Source: Escherichia coli (GTDB lineage Bacteria > Pseudomonadota > Gammaproteobacteria > Enterobacterales > Enterobacteriaceae). Taken from it: a DNA stretch of 64,000 bases. The stretch lies in NCBI RefSeq assembly GCF_050920415.1, contig NZ_CP169309.1; one strand, given 5' to 3'. Positions 1,053 to 36,028 of the stretch are shown here, one piece after another. The position numbers and the translations under genes were made by a program. The notes under the pieces were generated by a model, which made no database searches, was not told the DNA's origin, and saw only the letters and a list, made by a program, of their open reading frames with translations. Position 1 is the stretch's first letter, and the number at the start of each line of letters is the position of its first letter.

Positions 1053-1057
1053 GGGAT

Positions 1058-18425: not shown

Positions 18426-18532
18426 AACCCCACCTCGCAGACAAAGCGGGTGTAAATTGAGGGAATACTACGAAACGTAACAGACTCGGAGTCAGTGAAT
18501 AACTCAGGTATTGGGTTATCAGCTAATATCGA

Positions 18533-18570
18533 GACTCAAAAAATGGAAAAACCCGCTCGACGGCGGGTTT
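18533..18570 (-). terminator. putative rho-independent terminator on the late-gene strand, upstream of S
   Basis: Minus strand reads AAACCCGCCGTCGAGCGGGTTT followed by TTCCATTTTTTGAG (GC-rich stem plus T-run). Confidence 0.45.
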
Positions 18571-18998: not shown

Positions 18999-20096
18999 AT
19001 GAAAAAATTAACAGTGGCAATTTCTGCTGTAGCTGCATCAGTACTGATGGCGATGTCTGCTCAGGCAGCTGAAATTTATAATAAAGACAGTAACAAGCTG
19101 GATCTGTACGGGAAAGTTAATGCTAAGCACTACTTCTCCTCTAATGATGCAGATGATGGTGATACTACTTATGCCCGTCTTGGCTTCAAAGGTGAAACCC
19201 AAATCAACGATCAGCTGACTGGTTTCGGTCAGTGGGAATATGAATTCAAAGGCAACCGCGCTGAATCTCAAGGTTCCTCCAAAGACAAAACCCGTCTTGC
19301 ATTTGCAGGCCTGAAATTCGGTGACTACGGCTCAATCGATTACGGCCGTAACTACGGTGTAGCATACGACATCGGTGCGTGGACTGACGTTCTGCCAGAA
19401 TTCGGTGGCGATACCTGGACCCAAACAGATGTGTTCATGACTGGTCGTACCACTGGTGTTGCAACCTATCGTAACAACGACTTCTTTGGTCTGGTTGATG
19501 GTCTGAACTTTGCTGCTCAGTACCAAGGCAAAAACGATCGTAGCGATTTCGATAACTACACTGAAGGTAACGGTGATGGCTTCGGTTTCTCTGCTACCTA
19601 TGAATACGAAGGATTCGGTATCGGTGCAACTTATGCGAAATCTGATCGTACCGACACTCAAGTTAATGCAGGGAAAGTTCTTCCTGAAGTATTTGCTTCC
19701 GGTAAAAATGCAGAAGTTTGGGCCGCAGGTCTGAAATATGACGCTAACAACATTTACCTGGCCACTACCTATTCTGAAACCCAGAATATGACTGTATTTG
19801 CTGATCACTTCGTTGCTAATAAAGCTCAAAACTTCGAAGCTGTTGCACAATATCAGTTCGATTTCGGTCTGCGTCCGTCCGTTGCTTACCTGCAATCTAA
19901 AGGTAAGGATCTTGGAGTATGGGGCGATCAGGACTTAGTCAAATATGTTGATGTAGGTGCAACCTATTACTTCAACAAAAATATGTCTACTTTCGTTGAT
20001 TACAAAATCAACCTGCTTGACAAAAATGACTTCACTAAAGCACTCGGTGTAAGCACTGATGACATCGTTGCTGTAGGTCTGGTTTACCAGTTCTAA
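18999..20096 (+). CDS. nmpC: outer membrane porin (NmpC/Lc-type general porin), apparently intact
   Basis: Track ORF 365 aa [46 protein letters not shown]...VGLVYQF; signal peptide and C-terminal aromatic residue typical of OmpC-family porins; lies between Q and S on the opposite strand as in DLP12/PA-2. Confidence 0.9.
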
Positions 20097-20104
20097 TCTG
20101 ATTA

Positions 20105-20146
20105 CGAAAAAGATATGTTGCGGGAGGCTTTGCCTCCCCAACATAT
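20105..20146 (-). terminator. putative late terminator tR' (minus strand), also usable as convergent terminator for nmpC
   Basis: Palindrome ATATGTTGGGGAGGC-AAAG-CCTCCCGCAACATAT followed on the minus strand by CTTTTTCG; ~100 nt downstream of a promoter-like sequence after Q. Confidence 0.45.
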
Positions 20147-20233
20147 AAGTGGCTCCCTCAAGCCACTTCCTTTAGGAGCACAACCTTGCTTCTAACTATA
20201 TAAACCTTCTGTTATATATTACCCTTTATTTTT

Positions 20234-20259
20234 GGGGGCGTTGCAACGCCCCATTTTTA
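20234..20259 (+). terminator. putative rho-independent terminator on the plus strand downstream of nmpC
   Basis: GGGGCGTTGCAACGCCCC followed by ATTTTTAA. Confidence 0.5.
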
Positions 20260-20285
20260 ATAACTTTTAGTAAACAACTGGCATA

Positions 20286-20669
20286 TTAATTAGAGTTATT
20301 AACAACGATATCCATCTCTAACCGGATATCTAATGCCATTAACATCCCTTCAATTATACCCTCAGCCTTCTGTAACCTTTTCCCGATATAACCATCAGAG
20401 CAGCAATGCTTACCTGCCAGTGACATGAATGTCATACCGACTACATAATAATCTACTAATAAATCGTGCAAATCGCTGTTGTTCTTTTTCAGACGGGCCA
20501 TGCACCCGCAAATGATCATCGCGTCATCGTCACAACATTGCGGGCGAGATTTTACTTTTGAAGTAATTAATCCCTTAAAACCGGCGGCAATGGACGACCA
20601 GGTCACATCTTCATGATTATTAGCCGCCCACGCTCCCCAACGCTCAAGAACCATCTGAATATCACGCAT
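20286..20669 (-). CDS. Q: late-gene antiterminator Q (phage-82 / DLP12 QuuD type)
   Basis: Track ORF 20286-20684; contains [34 protein letters not shown]...[18 protein letters not shown]... (127 aa from this Met); Cys cluster consistent with a zinc-binding Q. Confidence 0.8.
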
Positions 20670-20751
20670 CAACTTACTCCACAAAAATCAGACCAGAACG
20701 CCAATTACAAGCAAAAATCAACAAAATAGTATTAGTTGATTGTTATCTCTG

Positions 20752-20892
20752 ACTTCATACTCCTGCTCCTGTCAGGGTTTTGGCGTAATTCTTCAGTATC
20801 CGGTAATCGGTCAAAACAGAACCAGGAAAACGATATAAGCGCAGGCGCACCCAGCGGCGGCGAAGACGCTCTGCCATATAAGACTCAAACAT
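20752..20892 (-). CDS. ylcG: small DUF3927-like protein (DLP12 YlcG-like)
   Basis: Manual minus-strand translation [45 protein letters not shown]; start overlaps the rusA stop; below track size cutoff. Confidence 0.5.
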
Positions 20893-21254
20893 CATTCATT
20901 CCCCATTTCGGTGATGGTCAGTTCCAGCCTCCCACCTTTGGTAACAGGCATCTTCACAACGCGGTAATCAACGACCTGAGCATCATCCAGCCAGAAACCT
21001 GCTTTGGTGAGTGCGTCAAAAGCGGCCTTTTGCAGATTATCCAGGTCACGGCGACGGCGATCCGGCATGTGGCACTCAATACGGATTTTCACTGGCATAG
21101 CCAGGCCGATATCCAGCATTGCGTTTTTAATGATTCGGGTGACGTTATCGCGGTATGCCTGCCCTTCTGCGCTGATGTGTGTGCGCCCGCGATTATGGCG
21201 GTAATAGCGGTTATTGCTCGGAGGCCAGGGTAGTGTGATGTGGTAAGTATTCAC
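20892..21254 (-). CDS. rusA: Holliday junction resolvase RusA
   Basis: Track ORF 20892-21317; 120 aa from the GTG at 21252-21254 ([37 protein letters not shown]...); start overlaps the ybcO stop. Confidence 0.85.
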
Positions 21255-21541
21255 GCCTTGATTACCCCCTCTTTCAGCCAGATAACCTGCGTTCTCGCCA
21301 TACCTTCCAGCGCGCATTCTTTTGCGTACTCAGCATCGACAAAATGCGTGCGGCGGTCGATTTCGTCGTGACAGGCAGAACAGGCAATGGTGGCAATAAG
21401 GTCTGGCGGTTTAATACCGGTGCCGCACAATCCAGCCAGCCGGATATGTGCCAGTACAGACGTTTCAGGGTTGCCATTACATACGCCAGTGATTCTTACC
21501 TGGCATTCCCGACCACGCGCTGCTTTTCTCAAATCAGCCAT
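21251..21541 (-). CDS. ybcO: DUF1364-family protein (DLP12 YbcO-like, Cys-rich putative nuclease)
   Basis: Track ORF 21251-21580; start chosen at [35 protein letters not shown]... Confidence 0.7.
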
Positions 21542-21704
21542 GATTCCTCCTTGCTGCCAGTCGCAACCATTTTTTATCAACCAGGCTAGCGGTATATCCG
21601 AGCAGTGTTGGTATTTCGGATGGCTTCAGCTCAGGCTTACGCTTACGACGATTTGGTACTCTGTAGATGTGTCCGTTCATGACACGAATAAGCGGTGTAG
21701 CCAT
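21534..21704 (-). CDS. ninE: NinE-like small protein
   Basis: Manual translation [56 protein letters not shown]; ATG overlaps the ybcN stop (TAATG); below track size cutoff. Confidence 0.6.
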   Translation of the reverse strand: MATPLIRVMNGHIYRVPNRRKRKPELKPSEIPTLLGYTASLVDKKWLRLAARRNHG

Positions 21705-22159
21705 TACGCCTCCTGCTTGTCGCGCAGCAGCTGGAACTCGCAGCTCTGCGGAATAGTCAGGTGGCAGCCAATATTCATCGCCCAGGCTTCAACCTTACAC
21801 AGGAAGACATACATCTCTCCGGTATCAAGATCGGAAGTATGGCGTAACGACTGGATAGTAGTGATTTCGCCGGTTACGACATCAACCAGGTCCTTGGTTT
21901 CATAACCGAGGTATGTGTGTTTGAGAGCATCTTTTACCCAAGCTGGAGTGGCGAACGTTTTACCCCTGCTGATGAGGTATTCACTGATTTCGCTGTACCA
22001 CATGTGGCTGAGTGCATTCTGGGAAAGACTGCGTTTCTCACGCCACGGTTTAAGCACCATGCGAAAGCATTTGCCTTCCTCCAGATAAGGCTGGATCTGC
22101 TGGCCGATAGCGGTGAAGTTACCACGATGCAATTTGATGCCGTCTTGTGGGAGGTTCAC
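21704..22159 (-). CDS. ybcN: NinB-position protein (DLP12 YbcN-like)
   Basis: Track ORF 151 aa, GTG start preceded by [47 protein letters not shown]... Confidence 0.75.
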
Positions 22160-22193
22160 GCTTCACCTCCGCAGAGGTCAAACGCTGGATGCA

Positions 22194-22278
22194 AAAAATC
22201 GCAGGTGCATCTCTGCATCTGTGAAGGGAGAAGAGAGTTTGGATTGTATGTGCGCATAAACGTCCCCGTTTAGCGCAG
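22194..22278. repeat. ~85-bp direct repeat, copy A (partner at 24128-24211, ~93% identical)
   Basis: AAAAATCGCAGGTGCATCTCTGCATCTGTGAAGGGAGAAGAGAGTTTGGATTGTATGTGCGCATAAACGTCCCCGTTTAGCGCA; contains imperfect hairpin GCGCATAAACG-TCCCC-GTTTAGCGC. Confidence 0.75.
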
Positions 22279-22353
22279 AAGTCACCGGAGTTGTTCAAGC
22301 TCCAATGGCATGATTATGGCTGGTTGATTATTGGAAATCAAATGTGCTGAAAA

Positions 22354-22863
22354 TTAGTCTGCCAAGTCTTCCTCAGTCGCAACTGGGTAATTCCAAATAT
22401 CAAAAAAAGCTATAGCCTCCTGCCATTTGCTCCATAAGTTATCAAGTACTTGTGTAGGTTCCGTACTTTTAAAAACAGAATCAGCCGCATCACCGTTATG
22501 AACTTCCTCGTACAGTTCCATTATTAGCAGATTAACAAAGTACTGTTTCAACATTAATGCCTGATTACCTTCTTTCTGCTGGCTATCCTGCTTGATGAGC
22601 TCCATCGCCCGTACTAGGCACCTGATGATATCCGCTGCATCATTAACGCTCCATTCAGATCCGCGCTTATCTTTAGCTGATGAATTGGCTCTCTCAGCGC
22701 AAGCCTTTAAAGACTCATAAAGGTAAACTCTATTTTGTAGCTGCAGCGCTTTTTTTGACGTGCACCAACTTGCAAGCGCCGACCCCGCTGCGGCTAATGT
22801 GCCAAACGCAGAAATGCCTGCTGCTATTGCACTTAAGTCGGCACTGTCAAAGTTCCACATCAT
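22354..22863 (-). CDS. hypothetical protein with one N-terminal hydrophobic helix; no family recognised
   Basis: Track ORF 169 aa MMWNFDSADLSAIAAGISAFGTLAAAGSALASWCTSKK...; AT-rich upstream region; lies inside the repeat-bracketed cassette. Confidence 0.6.
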   Translation of the reverse strand: MMWNFDSADLSAIAAGISAFGTLAAAGSALASWCTSKKALQLQNRVYLYESLKACAERANSSAKDKRGSEWSVNDAADIIRCLVRAMELIKQDSQQKEGNQALMLKQYFVNLLIMELYEEVHNGDAADSVFKSTEPTQVLDNLWSKWQEAIAFFDIWNYPVATEEDLAD

Positions 22864-23036
22864 CGTTACACCTTATATAAACACCCCTCAGTAATATCCA
22901 ATAAGGTATGTGAACAATCAATATAATTTATATCCGTATCGGCACATAGCGATTTTAATGCTACTGATAATGGTATCTTTTAGATTATATCGTCCAGTTC
23001 CAGTACCCGTATTTTATGAAATGGACTCGCACATTA

Positions 23037-23078
23037 CCAAAAAAAATGCCAGCACTTCCGTCATCGCAGAATGCTGGC
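23037..23078 (-). terminator. putative rho-independent terminator downstream of the Bro-N-like gene
   Basis: Minus strand: GCCAGCA...TGCTGGC stem followed by ATTTTTTTTGG. Confidence 0.45.
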
Positions 23079-23098
23079 AGTATTTCTAACTAGTGACT

Positions 23099-23707
23099 TT
23101 ATTGCAACAGATTCTGACGGAAATATGGTAACACACGACTCCACTTATCATCCTGCCACGGTTGGAATTTTACATGCGCCGTTTCTCTGGCAAGGATTTC
23201 TCGCGCCCTGTTGAGTATCCGAGGATATTCTTGTTCGATTGAAGTGAATCTACCTGCTTCGCGATGCTCTGCGACCTGAAGAAGGGGCGTAACGTTCTGG
23301 CAGGCGGTTAACATCGTATCACTTGCTCGCCATAACCAGGCGAGTGTGCAAAGTTCGTTATCAGTGAATTGTTTTGTGATTGGGGATTGTTGAACTTCTC
23401 GATCGAGAATATCCAGAACCCAGCGGCGGAATTCTTTGGCCACAGGAGTACGAGCAAACATGGCGATCAAATGGGCTCCGCGAAGGCTAAATACTCGAGA
23501 CTCCTGCATTCCACGAGGGGTGGTCACTTTGACCACCCTTGTCATCATATCTGTGAATTCATCTGAGTGCCGAGAGTAAATGCGCTGAACTGCTTTATCG
23601 TCCGCATATTCCAGTGCTAAACCAACTTCAGTGGCAGTAAGCCAAATTCTGTTATTGTGGCAAATCGGGGTAAACGTCGTTTTGTGGAATGCTAATTGAG
23701 TAGTCAT
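23099..23707 (-). CDS. Bro-N / antirepressor-like domain protein
   Basis: Track ORF 202 aa MTTQLAFHKTTFTPICHNNRIWLTATEVGLALEYADDKAVQRIYSRHSDEFTD...; N-terminal region resembles Bro-N/KilA-N phage regulatory domains (pattern recognition only). Confidence 0.55.
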   Translation of the reverse strand: MTTQLAFHKTTFTPICHNNRIWLTATEVGLALEYADDKAVQRIYSRHSDEFTDMMTRVVKVTTPRGMQESRVFSLRGAHLIAMFARTPVAKEFRRWVLDILDREVQQSPITKQFTDNELCTLAWLWRASDTMLTACQNVTPLLQVAEHREAGRFTSIEQEYPRILNRAREILARETAHVKFQPWQDDKWSRVLPYFRQNLLQ

Positions 23708-23970
23708 AGTATCACCTCATCAGGTTAACCATCACCACCAACGACGCCAATCGACTGGTGGTGAACTGTGTAAGGTTGGCGTAACCGGCTACTCAAACCC
23801 GGCGCTTCCGAAGAAGCCCTCACACAGCCCACCATAATTTGGGCATAGCCGTGCTTAGCGCACAAAAAAACCGCTTAACGCGGTATGCGTTGAGTAGTAT
23901 CCCGGGACGCCAATCCCGTGTGCCGATTTTGCGGCAACGCACAGAATATAGCGCCGGATAAATCATGTCG

Positions 23971-24060
23971 TCAACCCCAGTAAATGGACACCATGATGAT
24001 CACAGCCATAGCTGCTACAACAGTTACAACTACCTCAGGCCAAAACATAACGATTTCCAT
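23971..24060 (-). CDS. candidate 29-aa hydrophobic micro-protein
   Basis: Manual translation MEIVMFWPEVVVTVVAAMAVIIMVSIYWG*, preceded by AGGTGA about 5 nt upstream; single predicted TM helix; below track size cutoff. Confidence 0.3.
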   Translation of the reverse strand: MEIVMFWPEVVVTVVAAMAVIIMVSIYWG

Positions 24061-24127
24061 ATCACCTTTAGCCGCCAGACGAATAGAGACTCCCAATTCT
24101 GGCTGTCGAAGTAAAACACCGAATGTA

Positions 24128-24211
24128 AAAAATCGTAGGTGCATTTCTGCATCTGTGAATGGAGATGAGAGTTTGGATTGTGTGTGCGCATAAACGTCCC
24201 CGTTTAGCGCA
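24128..24211. repeat. ~85-bp direct repeat, copy B (partner at 22194-22278)
   Basis: AAAAATCGTAGGTGCATTTCTGCATCTGTGAATGGAGATGAGAGTTTGGATTGTGTGTGCGCATAAACGTCCCCGTTTAGCGCA; about 6 mismatches versus copy A. Confidence 0.75.
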
Positions 24212-24519
24212 ACCCCACCACCGGGTGTTCAGGCCGACAGTAACTATATTATTCCCTACTGATTTTTGAAAATCAAAGGTCTTTATACGTCACACGAGAG
24301 CAAATATTTCCGAAGAAGAAACCTTTCGCCTTGAAAGGATAAAGAGTTCATTTCATAAATTGAAATATTCAATAAGAATATTGCAAAAAATGAAATTATT
24401 TACTAGCGAGTCTATCTAACTGATAATTATGAAGATTGTAAGCGGTAGCAATCACCCGCATACACATTGAACAGGATTTAATACAAAACGTCTTAAATTG
24501 TCCGTAAGGAATAGCACGA

Positions 24520-26022
24520 ATGACTCAAACTCCTCTATTACTTGCAATCATATTTTTATTGGTTGTTCTTGTTCTTTATATAGCTGCAATCAAACGCATC
24601 AAAAAAATACAATTAGAATTAAGTGATAGCAATCAAAAAAATGAAGAATACAAATCTCGCTTTGCAGATTATTTTAATGTAGAAGAAGAATGTAAGAAGC
24701 TTATTGAGAAAACAGAGCAAGAATGCTCCATAATAAAAGAAGAATCCCTAAAAGTAAAAGAAAATGCCAATAATGAACTAACAAACACCATTGAAAAAAT
24801 GGATGGTATCAATAAACAAATCCAAGAGCTAAGAAGAACTTATAAAGAGAAGAAAGAAATATATGATAAACTAGTAAGGCAAATTTCTATTTATTCAGAA
24901 GATGTTGAGCTAGCCGAACTAGGATTTTACGAACCTCATTTTAATTTTGAAGATTCAGAGCAATTTAAAAACAAAATAAAATCCATCAGGGATGAACAGA
25001 AATTAATGCTGCGGGATAAAACCCACTCTGGCGCAGTATATTGTACAACCCAATGGACTGTTGAAGGCTCTCGAGCAGAGGGTAAAAAAATGACAGACAG
25101 AAATATCAGGCTAACTACTAGAGCATTTAATAATGAATGTGATGCTGCAATTAGCAATTGCACGTGGAAAAACATCACTAAAATGGAAGAACGCATCACA
25201 AAGGCATTTGAGGCCATAAATAAACTAAACGAGCAAAATCACATATATATAAACACTAAATACCTCAATAAAAAACTTGAGGAATTGTGGCTTACCCATG
25301 AATATCGTGAGCAAAAACAGAAAGAAAAAGAAGAACAGGCAGAAATAAGGGCACAAATGAGAGAGGAGGAGCGTGCACAACGAGAAATAGAAAAGGCCAT
25401 GCAAGACGCAGAGGCAGAAGAGCGCCGTTATAAAAAAGCAATTGAAGCTGCAAGAAAGGAAATGGAAAAAGTTACTGGTGACATGAAGCAGCGCCTCGAA
25501 AATCGCATTGCCGAACTAGAACAGAGTTTGTCGCAGGCTGAATCAAAGCATCAAAGAGCATTATCCATGGCACAACAAACCAAACAAGGTCATGTTTATA
25601 TTATTTCGAACATAGGTTCTTTTGGGGAGAATGTTTATAAAATAGGCATGACACGACGTCTTGATCCGCAAGACCGTGTAAATGAGCTCGGTGATGCATC
25701 TGTTCCTTTTATTTTTGATGTACATGCCATGATTTATTCGGAGGACGCTCCATCATTAGAAAAAAAACTACATGATGTCTTCGATAAAAAGAGAGTCAAT
25801 CTTGTAAATCGTAGAAAAGAGTTTTTCTATGTTACTCTGGATGAGATCAAAGAAGCTGTTAAAAAACACTCTGATTCAGAAATTGAATTTATTGAGACAG
25901 CAGTCGCAAAAGACTTTAATGAGTCATTGGCTATTCGTAATCATGAAAATAAAAAAAGTGACAACAGCAACTCATCAATTATACCTGAGCGAAAAACCCC
26001 AGAGTTTGCAGATGCAATTTAA
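24520..26022 (+). CDS. membrane-anchored coiled-coil protein with C-terminal GIY-YIG/T5orf172-like domain (DUF4041-like architecture); candidate defence moron
   Basis: Track ORF 500 aa: N-terminal TM helix (LLLAIIFLLVVLVLYIAAI), ~300 residues Lys/Glu-rich coiled coil, then GHVYIISNIGSFGENVYKIGMTRRLDPQDRVNELG...EKKLHDVF...RKEFFYV; RBS AAGGAA; strongly AT-rich; opposite strand to flanking phage genes. Confidence 0.8.
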   Translation: MTQTPLLLAIIFLLVVLVLYIAAIKRIKKIQLELSDSNQKNEEYKSRFADYFNVEEECKKLIEKTEQECSIIKEESLKVKENANNELTNTIEKMDGINKQIQELRRTYKEKKEIYDKLVRQISIYSEDVELAELGFYEPHFNFEDSEQFKNKIKSIRDEQKLMLRDKTHSGAVYCTTQWTVEGSRAEGKKMTDRNIRLTTRAFNNECDAAISNCTWKNITKMEERITKAFEAINKLNEQNHIYINTKYLNKKLEELWLTHEYREQKQKEKEEQAEIRAQMREEERAQREIEKAMQDAEAEERRYKKAIEAARKEMEKVTGDMKQRLENRIAELEQSLSQAESKHQRALSMAQQTKQGHVYIISNIGSFGENVYKIGMTRRLDPQDRVNELGDASVPFIFDVHAMIYSEDAPSLEKKLHDVFDKKRVNLVNRRKEFFYVTLDEIKEAVKKHSDSEIEFIETAVAKDFNESLAIRNHENKKSDNSNSSIIPERKTPEFADAI

Positions 26023-26270
26023 TTAATTTGTAGTAGCAATAAAGCAGGCATCGTTGAGAATATTTTGTCAGCGATGCTTACTTCTCTAACAAAAACGGTG
26101 ATTACCAACGAACTAACGGACTTCAGGTAATCATAAGACAAATGGAACGACTCTCCGGTGATTAGATCCCTGCAATAACAGTAATTTTCTACTAACTGAA
26201 AAATCTTTAACTGCCGCTCCTATTTCTAAGCTGACTGCTAGATTACATGGTGTGTTACCGATGAAAACCG

Positions 26271-26573
26271 TCACAGCAAGTTTAAGTTCATATCTCCATA
26301 CACTGCCAACACTCGTTTCATCGCGGCACTCTGGCGACACTCCTTGAAAATCAGATTCGTGCTCACCTTTCCTTCCCGTTCTTCCCTGGTAGCGAACCGG
26401 TAATACACCGTTCGCCAGACCTTACCATCAACGACCAAGATTCCTGCCCGTGCCATTTTAGCCGCAGCCTGATTTATACTGGTTACTGTTGCGCCTGTTA
26501 CCGCAGCAACGTCCTGCGCACAGAAGCTCTTATGCGTCCCCAGGTAATGAATAATTGCCTCTTTGCCCGTCAT
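26271..26573 (-). CDS. ren: Ren protein (lambda Ren-like)
   Basis: Track ORF 100 aa MTGKEAIIHYLGTHKSFCAQDVAAVTGATVTSINQAAAKMARAGILVVDGKVW... Confidence 0.85.
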   Translation of the reverse strand: MTGKEAIIHYLGTHKSFCAQDVAAVTGATVTSINQAAAKMARAGILVVDGKVWRTVYYRFATREEREGKVSTNLIFKECRQSAAMKRVLAVYGDMNLNLL

Positions 26574-27271
26574 ACAGTTGCTCCTTTCAGTCCGAACTTC
26601 GCTTTGATTTCTGCGATCTTCGCCAGAGCCTGTGCACGATTTAGAGGTCTACCGCCCATGACAGGAAGTTGTTTTACTGGTTCAGGTATCGCCTCACCAC
26701 GGTTAATTCGCGCGGTCATACAAGTCAGTTCATCGGCAGCCTTGCGCCGTAATTCCGCATCAGTAAGCGCATTGGCCCGCATGTTCTGATACAGGTTGGT
26801 AACCAGCCAGTAGTGCGCGTTTGATTTCCACGGATAAGACTCTGCATCTGGATACAGGCCACGTTTCCGGCAATACTCGTAAACCATATCAACCAGCTCG
26901 CTGGCGTTTGGCAGCCCGGCGGTAACGGATGCTTCTTCCCGGCACCAGGCAACAAACTGCCCGGGTGATGGCAGGAATGGTCGATTCTGCCGACGGGCTA
27001 CGCGCATTCCTGCGTCAACCTGTTCCATCGTGGTGATCCCGTTTTCCCGGAAAGCCAGAACCCACTGGCGGCGGATTTCGTTCAGTTCGTTCTGGTCCCG
27101 GTTAGCCAGGCTCGCCGGGAAAGTTGCCAGTAACTGGCTGAACACACCATTGATGATCTGCGCTACCTGTTGTACCTGCGGCTTTTCGTCGTACTGTTCC
27201 GGCATGTTGTTGGCGATCCGGCGCATCTGCTCACGGTCAAAGTTAACCATCTGTGCGGCGATGTTTTTCAT
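26570..27271 (-). CDS. P: replication protein P (DnaB helicase loader, lambda P-like)
   Basis: Track ORF 233 aa MKNIAAQMVNFDREQMRRIANNMPEQYDEKPQVQQVAQIINGVF... Confidence 0.9.
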   Translation of the reverse strand: MKNIAAQMVNFDREQMRRIANNMPEQYDEKPQVQQVAQIINGVFSQLLATFPASLANRDQNELNEIRRQWVLAFRENGITTMEQVDAGMRVARRQNRPFLPSPGQFVAWCREEASVTAGLPNASELVDMVYEYCRKRGLYPDAESYPWKSNAHYWLVTNLYQNMRANALTDAELRRKAADELTCMTARINRGEAIPEPVKQLPVMGGRPLNRAQALAKIAEIKAKFGLKGATV

Positions 27272-28287
27272 AAATCCACCCCGTAAATCCAGTCAGTGTT
27301 TGTCAGGTCGAGTTTTGATTTTCCGGCTATCACGCCAGCCTGTTGCTTGTTACGGTTGATTTCGAGTTGGGTCCACTTGTCGCGGAGTTTGGCCGGACTT
27401 AGCACGTTACCGGACCAGAAGTTGTCCTGGCATGCCCAGCGGAACAGCACGCACATGTCGCGGTGGTTACGGCCGTCACGTTCACGCATCAGGCGGATAT
27501 CGTTAGCCCACCCTGCAAAATTCGGTTTTCTGGCTGATGGCGCGATGGTCTTCACCATGTCAAACATCCACTCTGCGGCGGTCAGGTCTTCTGCTGTCCC
27601 CCACCTGCTGCCGCTCTGAATTGCAGCATCTGGTTTCTCCACAGGAAGATCGTTTTCTGGTTGGTCAGAGGATTCGCCAGAATTCTCGGACGAAAAAGGT
27701 TTTATATTGTCTTTTGTTAGTTTGTCTTTTGTGTTTACCTGATTCGGGTAAGTGCCTTTACCTGATTTGGGTAAACTTTTCTTACCTGATTCAGGTAAAT
27801 TTACCTCTTTCAGGTAAACTTTATTTTTCTTACCTGATTCGGGTAATGTTGACCATTCACTGACCACATTATTAATGCCGATATTCCGCCCGCTCTGAAT
27901 AAAAATCCCACGCTTTACCAGAACACTTTTTGCAGCAGAACACTTGTGCGGCAATATCCCGGTCAACTCGGAAAGTTGCTCGTTGCTCACCCAATCCAGT
28001 TTTTTATTAAAGCCATATGTTTTGCGCATGACAGCCAGGAAGACCAGAAGCTGGTGCTGTGTTAATCCGGCCAGCATCACAGCTTCCAGCAACTCATTTG
28101 CAATGCGCGTATAACCATCATCGAGATCTGCCACGCGCGGCTCCTTTTGTGCCGCATCCGGCACTGGAAAATTGAATATCTCAGCAGTGTTTGCCATAAT
28201 TCCTCCCGCAATGAGTGTGTTACGATTTGCACCTGAAAGTCGGTTCTGTTCCCGCAGACCGACTTTCGCCATTTCTGAACCTGTCAT
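27268..28287 (-). CDS. O: replication initiator O (lambdoid O-like; origin iterons inside the gene)
   Basis: Track ORF 339 aa (start uncertain; internal Met at MANTAEIFNF...); C-terminal part resembles the lambda O P-interaction domain; iterons at 27735-27846 lie within the coding sequence. Confidence 0.8.
   Translation of the reverse strand: MTGSEMAKVGLREQNRLSGANRNTLIAGGIMANTAEIFNFPVPDAAQKEPRVADLDDGYTRIANELLEAVMLAGLTQHQLLVFLAVMRKTYGFNKKLDWVSNEQLSELTGILPHKCSAAKSVLVKRGIFIQSGRNIGINNVVSEWSTLPESGKKNKVYLKEVNLPESGKKSLPKSGKGTYPNQVNTKDKLTKDNIKPFSSENSGESSDQPENDLPVEKPDAAIQSGSRWGTAEDLTAAEWMFDMVKTIAPSARKPNFAGWANDIRLMRERDGRNHRDMCVLFRWACQDNFWSGNVLSPAKLRDKWTQLEINRNKQQAGVIAGKSKLDLTNTDWIYGVDL
27698..27846. 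repeat. ori: replication origin: five palindromic iterons (TACCTGATTCGGGTA-like) plus adjacent AT-rich segment
   Basis: Copies at ~27736-27750, 27759-27773, 27783-27797, 27802-27816, 27831-27845; AT-rich stretch 27698-27734 on the downstream side relative to O. Confidence 0.65.
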
Positions 28288-28823
28288 ATTGCCCCCAGCA
28301 TGGTGGTCACCATCGCCATTAATGGACCAGCCAGATCCGGGTCCACACGAAACATCGACACAATACCTTCACTCATTTCCTTCAGTTTCTGGTGGCGTGG
28401 TGCGTTGAGAATGACAGCCTGTTTTGCCTCACTGAGTTCCTTTTCCATTTCAGCCAACCGAGTCATGAAGCTATCCTGCTCAACCAGGTAACCGCGATAT
28501 TCCAGCGGTAGTACCGCCAGAATTGCCGGGGTCAGTTCACGCACGTTATTTCGGTATTTTTCAGAATCGAATTTGTTATCGAGGAAGCGGAACAGCTTCT
28601 GGCGTGCACGGCTGACATCATCAGGGAAATCGATGGTGCCGTCGCCCTGCTCCCGATACTCATTCACAATGAGTGCGGCAACGACATCCTGATTATCTAC
28701 AGCCGACCAGGCGCGGACGGCATCACGGATTTTTTCGTGGCCTGGAGCTTGTTTTGTTTGAGAACGATTTATCACCGCAGTCGGAATAAATCCGCTAGTC
28801 TGTTGGTATGTAAGTGGTTGCAT
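28284..28823 (-). CDS. YdaT-family protein (occupies the cII position)
   Basis: Track ORF 179 aa MQPLTYQQTSGFIPTAVINRSQ...ALIVNEYREQGDGTIDFP...RELTPAILAVLPLEYRGYL; resembles Rac YdaT by recollection. Confidence 0.5.
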   Translation of the reverse strand: MQPLTYQQTSGFIPTAVINRSQTKQAPGHEKIRDAVRAWSAVDNQDVVAALIVNEYREQGDGTIDFPDDVSRARQKLFRFLDNKFDSEKYRNNVRELTPAILAVLPLEYRGYLVEQDSFMTRLAEMEKELSEAKQAVILNAPRHQKLKEMSEGIVSMFRVDPDLAGPLMAMVTTMLGAI

Positions 28824-28892
28824 AATTGACTCCTTTAGTTTGAATTGACTGTTAAGTTGATTGCTTATTGTTAAAGAGCGTGAAATGGAAAT

Positions 28893-29123
28893 TTAAGCTG
28901 CGTTCTTTTCGGTGTGTGGAAACAACTTCGGAAGATCCGGGCGAATCTGGTATGCCTTCACAACTCCACCAGTAGCCGTAACAATGCTGCCGACATGTTC
29001 AGGGGATACCTTTGCTTTGTTGTGAAGCCACTTATAGACGGCCTGCTGTGAAACTTCGCAGGCATCGCCTAGTTTCTTTTGTGAACCAACGATATTGATC
29101 GCTGTTTTGATTGCTGGGTTCAT
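28893..29123 (-). CDS. cro: Cro/YdaS-type HTH regulator (cro analogue)
   Basis: Track ORF 76 aa MNPAIKTAINIVGSQKKLGDACEVSQQAVYKWLHNKAKVSPEHVGSIVTATGG...; divergent from the repressor gene. Confidence 0.65.
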   Translation of the reverse strand: MNPAIKTAINIVGSQKKLGDACEVSQQAVYKWLHNKAKVSPEHVGSIVTATGGVVKAYQIRPDLPKLFPHTEKNAA

Positions 29124-29227
29124 AACAACCTCCGTGGTTAATCCGAATCAAGATTAAAACTATGGTTGTTTTTAGTCAACAACCATTTTCGTTTGATGAA
29201 ATAAAACCTTGGTTGTACATTTGATCT
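29124..29227. promoter_or_regulatory. immunity-region operator/promoter region between divergent cro-like and cI genes
   Basis: Inverted repeats with half-site TGGTTGT/ACAACCA (e.g. ATGGTTGTTTTTAGTCAACAACCAT); same half-site recurs in the putative OL/PL region. Confidence 0.5.
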
Positions 29228-29917
29228 ATGAAAACAACACTCTCAGAAAGACTTAAAGAAGCCAGATTAGCGCGAGGCCTTACACAAAAGGCGCTTGGGG
29301 ATTTGGTCGGGGTTAGCCAAGCTGCTATTCAGAAAATCGAAACAGGGAAAGCTAACCAAACAACTAAAATCGTGGAGATCGCGAACGCTTTGGGTGTGCG
29401 CGCAGAATGGTTATCTTCTGGCGTTGGAAATATGTCAGACAGTACAGTGCAACCAATACAATCAACTGTCAGCCATTCCAAATACTTCAAAATTGACGTT
29501 CTTGATATAGAAGTCAGTGCCGGGCCAGGTGTAATCAACCGTGAGTTTGTAGAAGTTCTACGCTCGGTTGAGTACTCGTTTGACGATGCTCGTCACATGT
29601 TCGATGGCAGGAAGGCGGAAAATATCCGCATCATTAACGTGCGAGGTGACAGCATGTCAGGGACGATCGAACCAGGTGACCTGCTGTTCGTTGATATCAC
29701 TGTTAAATCTTTCGACGGTGATGGCATCTATGCGTTTCTGTACGACGACACTGCCCATGTAAAACGTCTTCAAATGATGAAGGATAAGCTGCTGGTTATC
29801 TCTGATAACAAGAGCTACTCGCCGTGGGACCCGATCGAGAAAGACGAGATGAACCGGGTGTTCATATTCGGTAAGGTCATTGGAAGCATGCCGCAGACGT
29901 ACAGGAAGCATGGTTAA
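29228..29917 (+). CDS. cI: CI-type repressor (XRE-family HTH + S24 LexA-like autopeptidase domain)
   Basis: Track ORF 229 aa MKTTLSERLKEARLARGLTQKALGDLVGVSQAAIQKIETGK...GDSMSGTIEPGDLLFVD...KRL; HTH and Ser/Lys-dyad motifs. Confidence 0.85.
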   Translation: MKTTLSERLKEARLARGLTQKALGDLVGVSQAAIQKIETGKANQTTKIVEIANALGVRAEWLSSGVGNMSDSTVQPIQSTVSHSKYFKIDVLDIEVSAGPGVINREFVEVLRSVEYSFDDARHMFDGRKAENIRIINVRGDSMSGTIEPGDLLFVDITVKSFDGDGIYAFLYDDTAHVKRLQMMKDKLLVISDNKSYSPWDPIEKDEMNRVFIFGKVIGSMPQTYRKHG

Positions 29918-30146
29918 TTTATCTACGACTTAAGGGAGCGAAGGTTAAGGTTTATACCACTCGGATTAGATATTGCACTAAATTCTCTATAAGAACGCCA
30001 AATCTGTTTGCATATTTCAGTAAATATTCTCGTTGTTAGCTGAGATTTGTTGCTACTGTCAGCAAAATGTCCCCCTATCTCGTAGCGGTTTTTATTTCGA
30101 ATCATTATGTTAAGATGTTTCTGATTATAATGAATGGAAACATAAA

Positions 30147-30527
30147 ATGAGAAAAATCCTAATCGCTGCCATGATGGCATCTGTATTGGCTGGGTGTGCT
30201 TCTTCAGGCAACCAGCAACTCAAAAATGAAACTGAAATTAGTGTCCAGTCTAAACTTCAGGAAGGTAAAACAACCAAGAATGAGGTTAAATCTTACTTTG
30301 GTTCTCCTGATGCTGTTTCATATACTGACAGTGGAAACGAGATCTGGAAGTACGCCTTTGCAAAAGTAAAAGTTAATGGCACCACTTTTATTCCATTCTA
30401 TGGATTATTCCATAATGGAACGAACGGTACGAAAAAAGAACTTACTATTCTTTTTAACGATGACACGATTAAGAAATACACAATGTCAGAAACCCAAATA
30501 AACTCGAAATCAGGTTGGGCTGACTGA
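30147..30527 (+). CDS. lipoprotein of unknown function, located directly downstream of cI (rex position)
   Basis: Track ORF 126 aa MRKILIAAMMASVLAGCASSGNQQLKNETEISVQSKLQEGK...; lipobox LAGC; AT-rich; followed by a terminator. Confidence 0.7.
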   Translation: MRKILIAAMMASVLAGCASSGNQQLKNETEISVQSKLQEGKTTKNEVKSYFGSPDAVSYTDSGNEIWKYAFAKVKVNGTTFIPFYGLFHNGTNGTKKELTILFNDDTIKKYTMSETQINSKSGWAD

Positions 30528-30535
30528 TAATCATA

Positions 30536-30560
30536 CCCGGCAACCGCGCCGGGTTTTCTT
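30536..30560 (+). terminator. putative rho-independent terminator after the lipoprotein gene
   Basis: CCCGGCAACCGCGCCGGG followed by TTTTCTTTTCC. Confidence 0.55.
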
Positions 30561-30684
30561 TTCCTCCCCCTCATAACTCATACCGTCCAAAAAACCACCA
30601 CACCTCACTTCAGTTATCGCTATGCGATGCAAGTCACAAAATAAATCCATCCTAAATACAACCAGTTATATTTAAAACAACCGA

Positions 30685-30731
30685 CAAAACAACTTTTGTT
30701 GTTGACGATAAAACAACTATAGTTTTAAATA
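30685..30731 (+). promoter_or_regulatory. putative PL promoter with overlapping OL operators
   Basis: TTGACG (30702-30707), 17-bp spacer, TTAAAT (30725-30730); flanked by AACAACTTTTGTTGTT and AAAACAAC matching the OR half-site. Confidence 0.4.
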
Positions 30732-30803
30732 AATTCATCGCAACGACACAACGATACGGTAACCACCTGTTTCACCGTGGCGATGACCGCTTAGATCCGC
30801 AGT

Positions 30804-31214
30804 TTGAATTTCAGCAGGCTTCGGGGAGTGCGAGGGGTGAAACGGACGCGTGAACGTCGGTGTGACCAGCTGAAATCAACACAACACTTTATACCTCAGT
30901 CGCTTCAACGAGGCGGCTTAGTTATGACAACCGGCGGCCATCCACCGCCTGAATACGCGCAGAAGTCTCTATATGTTCAGCAGCCCAGCTTACGGGCAGG
31001 AGTTTTTATGGTTCATCAACATTACGGAACGCAGACCGTTAATCGCGGTGCGGTCATGCCAGGAATGCTGGTCAAACACAAAGATGGTACCTGGACTGCA
31101 TCAGCTAATTTACGCGGACGGCTTTATCTGCATCGCGGCATCGAGCGCACTTATACCCGTGATTTGCTCGTGGAAGTTTTTCTCGACGGACGCGGTAACG
31201 GCCTCAATCACTAA
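30804..31214 (+). CDS. hypothetical early-left protein; possibly an N-type antiterminator if a non-ATG start is used (ATG-initiated product would be 30924-31214)
   Basis: Track ORF 136 aa with TTG start; in-frame arginine-rich segment [12 protein letters not shown] resembles N-protein ARM motifs; first ATG ([14 protein letters not shown]...) has GAGG about 10 nt upstream; ends 75 nt before gam. Confidence 0.4.
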
Positions 31215-31289
31215 TCCCCTTTCCTGTTTTCCTAATCAGCCTGGCATTTCGCGGGCGATATTTTCACAGCCATTTTCAGGAGTTCAGCC

Positions 31290-31586
31290 ATGAACGCTTA
31301 TTACATTCAGGATCGTCTTGAGGCTCAGAGCTGGGCGCGTCACTACCAGCAGATCGCCCGTGAAGAGAAAGAGGCAGAACTGGCAGACGACATGGAAAAA
31401 GGCCTGCCCCAGCACCTGTTTGAATCGCTATGCATCGATCATTTGCAACGCCACGGGGCCAGCAAAAAAGCCATTACCCGTGCGTTTGATGACGATGTTG
31501 AGTTTCAGGAGCGCATGGCAGAACACATCCGGTACATGGTTGAAACCATTGCTCACCACCAGGTTGATATTGATTCAGAGGTATAA
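31290..31586 (+). CDS. gam: Gam (RecBCD inhibitor), short GamS form
   Basis: Track ORF 98 aa [52 protein letters not shown]... Confidence 0.9.
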
Positions 31587-31591
31587 AACGG

Positions 31592-32377
31592 ATGAGTACA
31601 GCACTCGCAACGCTGGCAGGGAAGCTGGCTGAACGTGTCGGCATGGATTCTGTCGACCCACAGGAACTGATCACCACTCTTCGCCAGACGGCATTTAAAG
31701 GTGATGCCAGCGATGCGCAGTTCATCGCATTGTTGATCGTCGCCAACCAGTACGGCCTTAATCCGTGGACGAAAGAAATTTACGCCTTCCCTGATAAGCA
31801 GAACGGCATCGTTCCGGTGGTGGGCGTTGATGGCTGGTCCCGCATCATCAATGAAAACCAGCAGTTTGATGGTATGGACTTTGAGCAGGACAATGAATCC
31901 TGCACATGCCGGATTTACCGCAAGGACCGCAATCATCCGATCTGCGTTACCGAGTGGATGGATGAATGCCGCCGCGAACCATTCAAAACCCGCGAAGGCA
32001 GAGAAATCACGGGGCCGTGGCAGTCGCATCCCAAACGGATGTTACGTCATAAAGCCATGATTCAGTGTGCCCGTCTGGCCTTCGGATTTGCTGGTATCTA
32101 TGACAAGGATGAAGCCGAGCGCATTGTCGAAAATACCGCATACACTGCAGAACGTCAGCCGGAACGCGACATCACTCCGGTTAACGATGAAACCATGCAG
32201 GAGATTAACACTCTGCTGATTGCCCTGGATAAAACATGGGATGACGACTTATTGCCGCTCTGTTCCCAGATATTTCGCCGCGACATTCGCGCATCGTCAG
32301 AACTGACACAGGCCGAAGCAGTGAAAGCTCTCGGATTCCTGAAACAGAAAGCCACTGAGCAGAAGGTGGCAGCATGA
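31592..32377 (+). CDS. bet: Bet (Red-beta single-strand annealing protein)
   Basis: Track ORF 261 aa [48 protein letters not shown]... Confidence 0.95.
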
Positions 32378-33054
32378 CACCGGACATTATCCTGCAGCGT
32401 ACCGGGATCGACGTGAGAGCTGTCGAACAGGGGGATGATGCATGGCACAAATTACGGCTCGGCGTCATCACCGCTTCAGAAGTTCACAACGTGATAGCAA
32501 AGCCCCGCTCAGGAAAGAAGTGGCCTGACATGAAAATGTCCTACTTCCACACCCTGCTTGCCGAGGTTTGCACCGGTGTGGCTCCGGAAGTTAACGCTAA
32601 AGCACTGGCCTGGGGAAAACAGTACGAGAACGACGCCAGAGCCCTGTTTGAGTTTACTTCCGGCGTGAATGTTACTGAATCCCCGATCATCTATCGCGAC
32701 GAAAGTATGCGCACCGCCTGCTCTCCCGATGGTTTATGCAGTGACGGCAACGGCCTTGAACTGAAATGCCCGTTTACCTCCCGGGATTTCATGAAATTCC
32801 GGCTCGGTGGTTTCGAGGCAATAAAATCGGCTTACATGGCCCAGGTGCAGTACAGCATGTGGGTGACGCGAAAAGATGCCTGGTACTTTGCCAACTATGA
32901 CCCACGAATGAAGCGTGAAGGCCTGCATTATGTCGTGATTGAGCAGGATGAAAAGTACATGGCGAGTTTTGACGAGATGGTGCCGGAGTTCATCGAAAAA
33001 ATGGACGAGGCACTGGCTGAAATTGGTTTTGTATTTGGGGAGCAATGGCGATGA
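32374..33054 (+). CDS. exo: Exo (Red-alpha 5'-3' exonuclease)
   Basis: Track ORF 226 aa [49 protein letters not shown]... Confidence 0.95.
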
Positions 33055-33233
33055 AGCATCCTCACGATAATATCCGGGTAGGCGCGATCACTTTCGTCTA
33101 CTCCGTTACAAAGCGAGGCTGGGTATTTCCCGGCCTTTCTGTTACCCGAAATCCCCTGAAAGCACAGCGGCTGGCTGAGGAGATAAATAATAAACGGGGA
33201 GCTGTATGCACAAAGCATCTCCTGTTGAGTTAA
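33045..33233 (+). CDS. small hypothetical protein (lambda orf60a-position)
   Basis: Track ORF 62 aa [50 protein letters not shown]...; start overlaps the exo stop. Confidence 0.55.
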
Positions 33234-33397
33234 GAACGAGCATTGAGATGGCACATAGCCTCGCTCAAATTGGAGTCAGGTTTGTGCCAATACCAGTAGA
33301 AACAGACGAAGAATTTCATACGTTAGCCGCATCCCTTTCACAAAAGCTGGAAATGATGGTGGCGAAAGCAGAAGCAGATGAGAGAGACCAGGTATGA
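33206..33397 (+). CDS. small hypothetical protein (lambda orf63-like)
   Basis: Track ORF 63 aa [50 protein letters not shown]... Confidence 0.55.
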   Translation: MHKASPVELRTSIEMAHSLAQIGVRFVPIPVETDEEFHTLAASLSQKLEMMVAKAEADERDQV

Positions 33398-33473
33398 CAA
33401 CCACTGAATGCATTTTTCTGGCAGCGGGCTTCATATTCTGTGTGCTTATGCTTGCCGACATGGGACTTGTTCA

Positions 33474-33689
33474 ATGACACATCAGCAAGAAAACGCCCTT
33501 CGCAGTATTGCCCGTCAGGCTAATTCTGAAATCAAAAAAGCCAGACAGCAGTTCCCGGATAAAAACGTCGATGATATTTGCCGTAGCGTACTGAAGAAGC
33601 ACCGCGAAACGGTAACGCTGATGGGATTCACACCGACTCATTTAAGCCTGGCGATCGGCATGTTAAACGGCGTCTTTAAGGAACGGTGA
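33474..33689 (+). CDS. small hypothetical protein (lambda orf61-like)
   Basis: Track ORF 33408-33689; start chosen at internal ATG 33474 (MTHQQENALRSIARQANSEIKKARQQFPDKNVDD...). Confidence 0.5.
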   Translation: MTHQQENALRSIARQANSEIKKARQQFPDKNVDDICRSVLKKHRETVTLMGFTPTHLSLAIGMLNGVFKER

Positions 33690-33787
33690 GCATGAAAAAC
33701 AAAATCATCATGGAGCTACAGGCTCCTTTTTTATTATTCGCATTCACCCTCAAGCGTATTAACCAACAATTCAGGGATTAATGAAAG

Positions 33788-34006
33788 ATGGCAGACATCA
33801 TTGATTCAGCATCAGGAATTGAAGAATTACAGCGCAACACAGCAATAAAAATGCGCCGCCTGAACCACCAGGCTATATCTGCCACTCATTGTTGTGAGTG
33901 TGGCGATCCGATAGATGAACGAAGACGCCTGGCCGTTCAGGGTTGTCGGACTTGTGCAAGTTGCCAGGAGGAGATCGAACTTAAGAACAAACAATGGGGA
34001 CTGTGA
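33788..34006 (+). CDS. DksA/TraR-family C4 zinc-finger protein
   Basis: Track ORF 72 aa MADIIDSASGIEELQRNTAIKMRRLNHQAISATHCCECGDPIDERRRLAVQGCRTCASCQEE...; CxxC...CxxC motif. Confidence 0.75.
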   Translation: MADIIDSASGIEELQRNTAIKMRRLNHQAISATHCCECGDPIDERRRLAVQGCRTCASCQEEIELKNKQWGL

Positions 34007-34053
34007 TGGCCTCAAAGCAGCAAATTTCAACATCGTCCAACTGAGGTGTAAAA

Positions 34054-34332
34054 ATGTTCAGAATCATTTTTCCTAACACCTGGTACGTCGACCACCACGG
34101 CACTCCCTGCAAAATCCTGCGTTCTACCCACAACAAAGTTCACTACATCCGAAAAGGCAGAACATGTATCGCCAGCATGTTCCGCTTTAATCATGACTTT
34201 GAACCTGTGAATAAAGCTGATGCAGATCGGATAGCAGAAGAGATCGAAACGGCAGAACACATTAAGAAGTTACGTGACATGCGTTCAAAAAGCAGAGGTA
34301 ACCATGGAATCATACAGCCTCACACTCGATGA
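34054..34332 (+). CDS. hypothetical protein
   Basis: Track ORF 92 aa MFRIIFPNTWYVDHHGTPCKILRSTHNKVHYIRKGRTCIASMFRFN...; no family recognised. Confidence 0.4.
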   Translation: MFRIIFPNTWYVDHHGTPCKILRSTHNKVHYIRKGRTCIASMFRFNHDFEPVNKADADRIAEEIETAEHIKKLRDMRSKSRGNHGIIQPHTR

Positions 34333-34675
34333 GGCCTGTCAGTTTCTTAAGATATCCAGACCAACCGCCACCAACTGGATACGAACAGGCCGCCTACAGG
34401 CAACACGTAAAGATCCAACCAAGCCAAAATCTCCTTACCTCACAACACGGCAAGCCTGCATTGCGGCGCTTCAGTCTCCGCTGCATACTGTCCAGGTGAG
34501 CGCGGGTGATGGCATAACAGAGGAAAGAAAATGTCACTCTTCCGCAGAAATGAAATATGGTATGCCTCGTATTCGCTCCCGGGCGGGAAACGAATTAAGG
34601 AATCTCTTGGCACAAAGGACAAGCGGCAAGCTCAGGAGTTGCACGACAAGCGAAAAGCAGAACTCTGGCGAGTAG
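34304..34675 (+). CDS. xis: excisionase-like protein (AlpA/Xis-type HTH), overlapping int start
   Basis: Track ORF 34274-34675; [37 protein letters not shown]... has the HTH pattern of AlpA/Xis-family excisionases; the open frame runs ~145 nt into int. Confidence 0.5.
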
Positions 34676-35694
34676 AAAAGCTAGGGGATTTACCTGATGT
34701 CACTTTTGAAGAGGCCTGCCTAAGATGGCTTGAGGAAAAAGCTGATAAAAAATCTCTCGATTCAGATAAAAGCCGGATTGAGTTCTGGCTTGAACATTTT
34801 GAGGGTATAAGGCTTAAAGATATCTCGGAGGCAAAGATTTACTCTGCTGTAAGCAGAATGCATAACAGAAAGACGAAAGAAATATGGAAACAGAAAGTTC
34901 AGGCCGCCATCAGGAAAGGTAAAGAACTGCCTGTTTATGAACCAAAGCCAGTATCAACTCAGACAAAGGCAAAGCATCTTGCCATGATAAAGGCCATTCT
35001 CCGTGCTGCAGAACGCGACTGGAAGTGGCTGGAAAAAGCGCCTGTCATCAAGATACCAGCGGTCAGAAACAAGCGAGTCAGATGGCTGGAAAAGGAGGAA
35101 GCAAAACGCCTTATTGATGAGTGCCCCGAACCACTGAAATCTGTCGTCAAGTTTGCGCTGGCAACTGGTCTGAGAAAGTCGAACATCATAAATCTGGAAT
35201 GGCAACAAATCGACATGCAGCGACGAGTTGCCTGGGTGAATCCAGAAGAGAGCAAATCAAACCGCGCCATTGGTGTGGCGCTAAACGATACCGCCTGTAA
35301 AGTGTTGCGTGATCAAATAGGCAAGCATCACAAATGGGTGTTTGTACATACCAAGGCGGCTAAGCGAGCAGATGGAACATCAACGCCTGCGGTCAGGAAG
35401 ATGCGCATCGACAGCAAGACATCATGGCTATCAGCTTGTCGTCGTGCAGGAATTGAAGATTTCCGTTTCCATGACCTCAGACACACCTGGGCAAGCTGGC
35501 TGATTCAGTCAGGCGTCCCATTATCAGTGCTTCAGGAAATGGGCGGATGGGAGTCCATAGAAATGGTTCGTAGGTATGCTCACCTTGCGCCTAATCATTT
35601 GACAGAGCATGCGAGGAAAATAGACGACATTTTTGGTGATAATGTCCCAAATATGTCCCACTCTGGAATTATGGAGGATATAAAGAAGGCGTAA
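34531..35694 (+). CDS. int: tyrosine site-specific integrase
   Basis: Track ORF 387 aa [47 protein letters not shown]...[39 protein letters not shown]; catalytic R..HxxR..Y signature; ends 15 nt from the tRNA 3' end. Confidence 0.95.
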
Positions 35695-35730
35695 CTGATT
35701 GAATTGTAATGGCGCGCCCTGCAGGATTCG
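35695..35730. other. prophage-host junction (att site overlapping the 3' end of argU); exact core not determinable without the distal copy
   Basis: int stop at 35694 and tRNA 3' end (CCA) at 35710; the second att copy is off-window. Confidence 0.5.
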
Positions 35731-35786
35731 AACCTGCGGCCCACGACTTAGAAGGTCGTTGCTCTATCCAACTGAGCTAAGGGCGC
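35710..35786 (-). tRNA. argU: tRNA-Arg (anticodon UCU)
   Basis: Reverse complement reads GCGCCCTTAGCTCAGTTGGATAGAGCAACGACCTTCTAAGTCGTGGGCCGCAGGTTCGAATCCTGCAGGGCGCGCCA; D- and T-arm consensus, anticodon loop CUUCUAA, 3' CCA. Confidence 0.9.
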
Positions 35787-36028
35787 GTTGATACCGCAAT
35801 GCAGTGTAATCGCGTGAATTATACGGTCAACCCTTGCTGAGTCAATGGCTTTTGATCTGGTTGCTGAACAAGTGAACGACCACGTCTGATTTTCTGATTT
35901 ATTTCGCTATAGCGGCAAACAAACGCACCCCGCTGCGCATCTGAATCAAGAAAACCCGTATTTTCATGTATCAAAGTACAATTTCCAGCCCTAACGGAAA
36001 ATTGTCCTACCCTGTGAGACTGGTAACT

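Follow-up and report, generated by a model that had tools for sequence, protein, structure and literature searches.

A probable attL junction of a lambda-like, DLP12/PhiR26_1-type prophage at the 3' end of argU in Escherichia coli

Positions 35695–35786 of the window analysed here (a 64,000-nucleotide stretch of the Escherichia coli contig NZ_CP169309.1, read on one strand, 5' to 3') are considered, with a probability of roughly 95%, to be the attL junction of a lambda-like phage of the DLP12/PhiR26_1 type inserted site-specifically in the tRNA gene argU. The argU gene encodes a tRNA-Arg(UCU) and spans 35710..35786 on the minus strand; it is complete at 77 nt and is the only tRNA found by ARAGORN across the whole window. 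Its anticodon TCT reads as AGA on the plus strand at 35750–35752, its 3' end is position 35710, and the same gene is annotated as tRNA-Arg or argU in relatives and in K-12. Converging on it is the int open reading frame, 34531..35694 on the plus strand (387 aa, TAA stop at 35692–35694); the 15 bp that separate the int stop from the 3' end of the tRNA, 35695..35709, form the spacer CTGATTGAATTGTAA. In the initial annotation int was said to end 15 bp from the 3' end of the tRNA-Arg(UCU) and to read toward it; the distance is exact (stop at 35694, tRNA end at 35710), as is the convergent orientation of int (plus) and argU (minus). The tRNA was further described as complete, and the window copy of the 77-nt gene proves identical, base for base, to the tRNA at the unoccupied site of MS1665.

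The 15-bp spacer is the same in the attP of the free phages 2G7b and Turner and unlike the flank of the empty site (...AATGAAGAAGAAA); it is phage DNA, with which the int-proximal attP arm begins, and it stands in place of the native argU 3' trailer. A consensus scan returned a candidate argU promoter at 35818..35845 on the minus strand (TTGACT-16 nt-TATAAT, 11/12 positions, a pattern match only); the same promoter-like sequence is present at the empty MS1665 site, and it lies on the host side, unaltered by integration. A pattern scan for terminator-like hairpins 3' of argU returned none on the minus strand of 35300–35709.

The tRNA is followed on its right by fimZ, the sfm fimbrial operon, folD, cysS, ppiB, lpxH and purEK, genes that mark the locus as the E. 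coli argU/fimZ/sfm neighbourhood. When 34400–36100 was compared by megablast with 5,426 complete E. coli genomes, essentially all of them matched, with intD, tRNA-Arg and fimZ as the features under the match; the same int-argU-fimZ arrangement, matched over at least 80% of the query, was found in 1592 of the 5426 (~29%), and since the junction recurs in so many genomes the adjacency of int and tRNA is not due to chance. DLP12 has been called the most prevalent E. coli prophage (PMC10057817). An uninterrupted envY–argU junction, representing the empty site, is present in 2538 of the 5426 genomes (~47%); in MS1665 it consists of the envY stop codon, a 45-bp spacer, the complete tRNA and fimZ. 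These empty sites uphold the earlier proposal that the junction is a prophage boundary, and the comparison with a prophage-free argU locus suggested at that time finds a complete and identical tRNA in MS1665, with homology to the window beginning at 35708.

The att core was defined through an alignment of five sequences in which attL is represented by the window, attP by the free phages 2G7b and Turner, attR by the lysogen 2013C-4282, and attB by the MS1665 empty site. A 45-bp block is common to attP, attB, attL and attR; its attL copy, TGGCGCGCCCTGCAGGATTCGAACCTGCGGCCCACGACTTAGAAG, occupies 35710..35754 and corresponds to argU nt 33–77, beginning with the first anticodon-loop base and ending with CCA. 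On either side of the block the flanks are exchanged: attL combines the left-hand attP flank with the right-hand attB flank, attR the left-hand attB flank with the right-hand attP flank, and attL and attR between them contain the flanks that rebuild attP exactly, an exchange that fits the Campbell model. Both free phages carry int, the 15-bp spacer, the 45-nt 3' part of argU and then unrelated DNA up to ompT; their attP holds the last 45 nt of argU and no more of that gene. This agrees with the earlier expectation that the phage supplies the 3' portion of the tRNA, which lies 15 bp past int in 2G7b and Turner. The boundary of the element is the 45-bp block of identity (35710–35754) and not a point. 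Genomes without this integrase match the window only from 35708 rightwards, and DLP12 has been described as integrated at argU with a 47-bp repeat at its far end (PMC6379469); both the breakpoint at 35708 and the figure of 47 bp are accounted for by two extra A residues beside the 45-bp core, which are fortuitously common to both sequences.

At the inner edge of the core, 35748..35754, lies the anticodon loop of 7 nt, which reads CTTCTAA on the tRNA strand; in attB this loop is flanked by the inverted repeat of the anticodon stem, ACGAC/GTCGT, and the identity block stops exactly at the first loop nucleotide. Such a layout is known as the 'anticodon-loop sublocation' pattern of tRNA-targeting integrase subfamilies, in which the identity reaches from the crossover as far as the 3' end for no other purpose than restoring the gene (bioRxiv 10.1101/2020.11.02.365908). 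By analogy, strand exchange probably takes place within the 7-nt loop, which would serve as the overlap segment, and the anticodon-stem arms ACGAC/GTCGT are putative core-type binding sites in attB. Because all copies of the core are identical, the position of the crossover and the share of the tRNA that is physically phage-derived cannot be read from the sequence. A search for arm-type repeats flanking the core in the 2G7b attP returned a single perfect 10-mer pair, ACGACATTTT, with one copy at the window equivalent of 35624–35633 and the other 9 bp past the core on the ompT side; the pair is not claimed as an arm-type binding site, about 0.3 such pairs being expected by chance in 781 bp by our own estimate.

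Int (34531..35694) is a tyrosine integrase of the IntD/DLP12 type, similar to P22 Int, and is identical to K-12 IntD at 386 of 387 residues. Residues 184–355 match PF00589 (E=5e-47, profile positions 1–171 of 172), and the protein also matches PHROG integrase families; R215, H314, R317, W340 and Y349 align with the motifs of HP1 integrase (ATGxR, HxLRHT, G[H/W]...RYAH), so that the R...H-x-x-R...[H/W]...Y signature of tyrosine recombinases is present. The same int gene adjoins attP in isolated phages. Upstream lies xis, a full-length P22-type excisionase gene of 123 aa at 34304..34675 on the plus strand, the end of which covers, in a different frame, the initial 145 nt of int. Xis matches PHROG 2907 'excisionase' over positions 2–117 of 117 (E=6e-46) as well as Pfam HTH_17, and by tblastn is 80% identical to the epsilon34 excisionase and 76% identical to P22 Xis; the match in P22 and epsilon34 likewise lies under both the xis and the int annotations. 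From these features the excision function appears intact. In the RefSeq annotation of HN68 and 2013C-4282 the xis stretch appears as a pseudogene of no more than 66 nt, labelled as a truncated 'helix-turn-helix domain-containing protein', and the phage records have an unrelated 56-aa open reading frame or nothing annotated there; this misannotation looks like an artefact of the xis/int overlap.

The part of the lambda-like prophage that falls inside the window, 1..35709, was delimited from its identity to phage PhiR26_1, from the gene maps of PhiR26_1, HN68 and 2013C-4282, and from collinearity with 2013C-4282 by blastn. From low to high coordinates the gene order is tail I–Z, head, terminase, bor, the Rz/R/S lysis genes, porin, Q, the nin region, PD-lambda-1/SNIPE, ren-P-O, cII-cro-cI, kil-gam-bet-exo, xis and int; to judge by the relatives, the element would extend off the window to the left through J, lom, stf, tfa, cargo genes, ompT and attR. 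With its full lambdoid module order, as annotated in near-identical records and matched by open reading frames in the window, the element is classed, by gene content, as a lambda-like temperate phage (a lambdoid siphovirus). Positions 11000–35711 align with PhiR26_1 in one piece of 24.7 kb at 99.8% identity and 100% coverage; PhiR26_1 is 48,207 bp long, and its record gives E. coli K-12 MG1655 as host. The tail region, 1–11000, is more diverged from phages of the PhiR26_1 type (~97% in gene V). Comparisons with relatives revealed no IS in the 35.7 kb inside the window.

Tail gene V (5754–6257, minus strand) carries a 1-bp deletion at ~5768/5769 relative to HN68 and PhiR26_1, changing GCAGAAGATCGC to GCAGAAATCGC; a stop follows six codons on, at 5754–5756, and approximately the last 90 codons are lost, a part that in lambda gpV forms the C-terminal Ig-like domain. 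The surrounding sequence is not a canonical slippery site, and either a genuine mutation or an error of sequencing may lie behind the deletion. Given this lesion, the one defect noted in the element, the prophage may not be fully functional; the deletion has no bearing on integration. Two further genes of the prophage body are of note. The first is a 500-aa open reading frame at 24520–26022 on the plus strand, between the nin region and ren, labelled DUF4041 or 'SNIPE associated' in relatives and 'PD-lambda-1' in PhiR26_1; SNIPE is a membrane-bound anti-phage nuclease, described in a preprint that also mentions PhiR68.2 (bioRxiv 10.1101/2025.11.03.685801), and on these labels the reading frame is identified as SNIPE, a prophage-borne defence gene. 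The other is an intact porin gene of the OmpD/NmpC type (18999–20096, plus strand, 365 aa) between Q and the lysis genes; its K-12 counterpart, nmpC, is split by IS5.

The int-proximal position of the junction fits its initial label of 'attL side' under the lambda convention, and the accompanying statement that the other boundary lies off-window is confirmed by the single copy of the core in the window. A search with the 45-mer allowing up to 3 mismatches found no second copy in the window, and with k-mers of 11–20 nt no repeat of at least 13 nt from 35680–35800 occurs elsewhere in it, the only hits being 11- to 12-mers at chance level; the second core is missing because position 1 of the window lies inside tail gene I. 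In 2013C-4282, HN68 and the PhiR26_1 record a single perfect copy of the core is found between envY and ompT, and there is no internal copy in 2013C-4282, HN68 or the window. K-12 MG1655 has two copies, at 564755–564799 and 586057–586101, of which the distal one lies between ompT and envY. A distal end lacking the duplicated core, named in the initial annotation as grounds for refutation, is thus not the case in any close relative examined. The PhiR26_1 record runs from attR to attL and keeps 6 nt of the host flank on the envY side; HN68 is the closest chromosomal relative of the window, being 99.6% identical over 18000–37000. From the geometry of HN68 and PhiR26_1 the prophage is estimated to be ~48 kb in length, and the window genome's own attR would lie ~12.3–12.5 kb to the left of position 1. 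This attR is expected to consist of the envY 3' flank (...ATAAATGAAGAAGAAA), the core, TTCCTAGAACGACATTTTAAG..., and ompT.

In free phages ompT is located directly across attP from int (3428–4381 in 2G7b); at the HN68 locus the gene occupies 10641–11594. It is accordingly a phage moron that comes to stand next to envY at attR once the phage has integrated, which explains why ompT is counted in K-12 DLP12. Prophages at argU that are otherwise alike differ strongly in the cargo that separates attR/ompT from the tail-fibre genes (9185–15400 in 2013C-4282 compared with 10641–14500 in HN68): 2013C-4282 carries appY along with genes for a methyltransferase, a ferritin-like protein and an Mn-catalase, whereas an alpha/beta hydrolase gene and a methyltransferase gene occupy the region in HN68 and PhiR26_1, and leftover fragments of tail-fibre-assembly genes in the region point to repeated recombination there.

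Three other accounts of the junction were weighed against the integrated, intact phage. The element could be a fixed, non-excisable remnant like K-12 DLP12, with the int-tRNA layout only an old scar; DLP12 has the identical junction and is defective (a truncated xisD, numerous deletions and IS elements), the tail gene V of the window has a frameshift, and the far end lies outside the window. A fossil of this kind is nonetheless thought unlikely, as the lambdoid gene order of the 35.7 kb is complete and the comparisons made turned up no IS in it, the 24.7 kb shared with the isolated phage PhiR26_1 are 99.8% identical, and int and xis are both full length with their motifs intact. That the tRNA is a phage-encoded gene beside int, instead of the chromosomal target, might be supposed from the Turner annotation, which has a 'tRNA-Pro' next to int; however, of argU the free attP holds no more than the final 45 nt, after which comes unrelated phage DNA, so the 'tRNA-Pro' is that 45-nt fragment. 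The full tRNA with its promoter is also present in genomes that have no prophage at this place, and upstream of nt 33 the sequence is host DNA that continues without a break to fimZ; a phage-encoded tRNA is ruled out on the short extent of argU in attP and on the empty sites with the full gene, and practically no weight is left to it.

A composite origin was the remaining alternative, in which an older argU island with ompT and appY would own the distal repeat, the prophage having entered otherwise, for example through homologous recombination with a resident remnant. Relatives do differ greatly from attR to the tail-fibre genes (appY/methyltransferase/catalase in 2013C-4282, alpha/beta hydrolase in HN68), the early regions are mosaic, and lambdoid phages are known to recombine with remnants of the DLP12 type; one report describes phage 434B as carrying cryptic prophage sequences in place of its lysis region (PMC9119081). 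Against this, ompT lies across attP from int in 2G7b and Turner, so that the phage itself includes ompT and the distal arm; 2013C-4282 and HN68 have one distal core copy and no internal one, the window has a single copy, and the attL and attR flanks give attP exactly. An island with an internal att site was rejected because no internal core occurs in 2013C-4282 or HN68 and ompT adjoins the free-phage attP, and the composite account as a whole is held to be very improbable.

With site-specific integration of an intact phage as the preferred reading, the following course of events is proposed. The attP, 15 bp downstream of int, carries the 45-bp copy of argU nt 33–77, and the tyrosine integrase IntD recombines this core with the identical segment of chromosomal argU. 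At the int end the host 5' part of argU (nt 1–32, with its own promoter-like element) is joined to the core, so that a complete and unchanged tRNA gene remains after integration; the displaced host 3' copy of the core would end ~48 kb away, between envY and the phage ompT, as attR. In the window's own genome this distal copy is predicted to lie ~12.4 kb to the left of position 1. The reverse reaction would be directed by xis, the intact P22-type gene that precedes int, and the element is probably still excisable.

Two consequences of such a junction are raised as speculation. Transcription of argU from its strong promoter may run on past the tRNA and cover, in antisense, the end of int together with the att arm on the int side, which is conceivable because the native trailer has been replaced by phage DNA in which no terminator-like structure is found; in the lysogen this read-through might damp int, or link int expression to the way in which the sole tRNA that reads AGA is expressed or processed. 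The phage-borne 3' strand of the anticodon stem might in turn tie lysogeny to hosts with a matching 5' half of argU. Two positions distinguish the attP core of Salmonella phage SEN22 (2612–2656), whose int is ~79% identical, from the E. coli core (GCGACCCACGGC as opposed to GCGGCCCACGAC), and the phage arm TTCCTAGAAC beside the core is conserved; this suggests that the phage-borne half of the tRNA may follow the argU allele of the host. One of the SEN22 differences falls in the 3' strand of the anticodon stem, which is consistent with lysogeny being tied to a matching argU 5' half. Taken jointly, antisense read-through coupled to int and lysogeny tied to the argU 5' half are put forward as an improbable conjecture.

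The arrangement itself is already known, being annotated in the K-12 reference and described for DLP12 at argU since 1989, and the junction adds nothing new to tRNA-targeted integration. Its value is mainly one of annotation: one end of a ~48-kb lambdoid prophage is pinned to 35710–35754, the element is identified as an intact relative of K-12 DLP12, and the other end is predicted next to envY/ompT, ~12.4 kb to the left of the window. The 1989 study of DLP12 at argU by Lindsey, Mullin and Walker reportedly stated an 'overlap of int with argU'; in the present coordinates the int open reading frame and the mature tRNA do not overlap and lie 15 bp apart.

Among the known elements closest to the one described here is K-12 DLP12. 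It shares the argU target, the 15-bp gap between int and the tRNA (argU ends at 564799 and intD begins at 564815), an IntD identical at 386 of 387 residues, the 45-bp core beginning at argU nt 33, and the distal copy between ompT and envY; the K-12 RefSeq feature 'cryptic prophage DLP12' (564755..586056) itself starts at argU nt 33. Genes in common are ybcN, ninE, ybcO, rusA, ylcG, quuD, an nmpC-type porin, essD, rrrD, rzpD, bor, ybcV, ybcW, ylcI and nohD. DLP12 is however a ~21-kb remnant that lacks head and tail genes, carries insertions of IS3 and IS5 and has xisD/exoD truncated, whereas the window element is full-length at ~48 kb, and its xis is intact, as are its modules for recombination, immunity, replication, head and tail; from this comparison K-12 DLP12 looks like an eroded version of a phage of the window type. 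PhiR26_1, 2G7b/ev243 (genus Nesevirus), Turner and Kati have the same int-xis-attP module (99.8–100%) with ompT across attP; these are phage genome records, while the window presents the integrated state.

Phage P22 targets thrW instead of argU, and P22 and epsilon34 are podoviruses (Lederbergvirus), whereas the window element is of the lambda-like siphovirus type; epsilon34, whose target is argU, has a 43-bp identity to that gene downstream of an int ~80% identical to DLP12 Int (PMC2629481). As in lambda, a tyrosine integrase and an excisionase exchange attP and attB for attL, next to int, and attR; lambda, however, uses a 15-bp core at an intergenic site between gal and bio, while the element at argU uses a 45-bp core that restores the tRNA gene.
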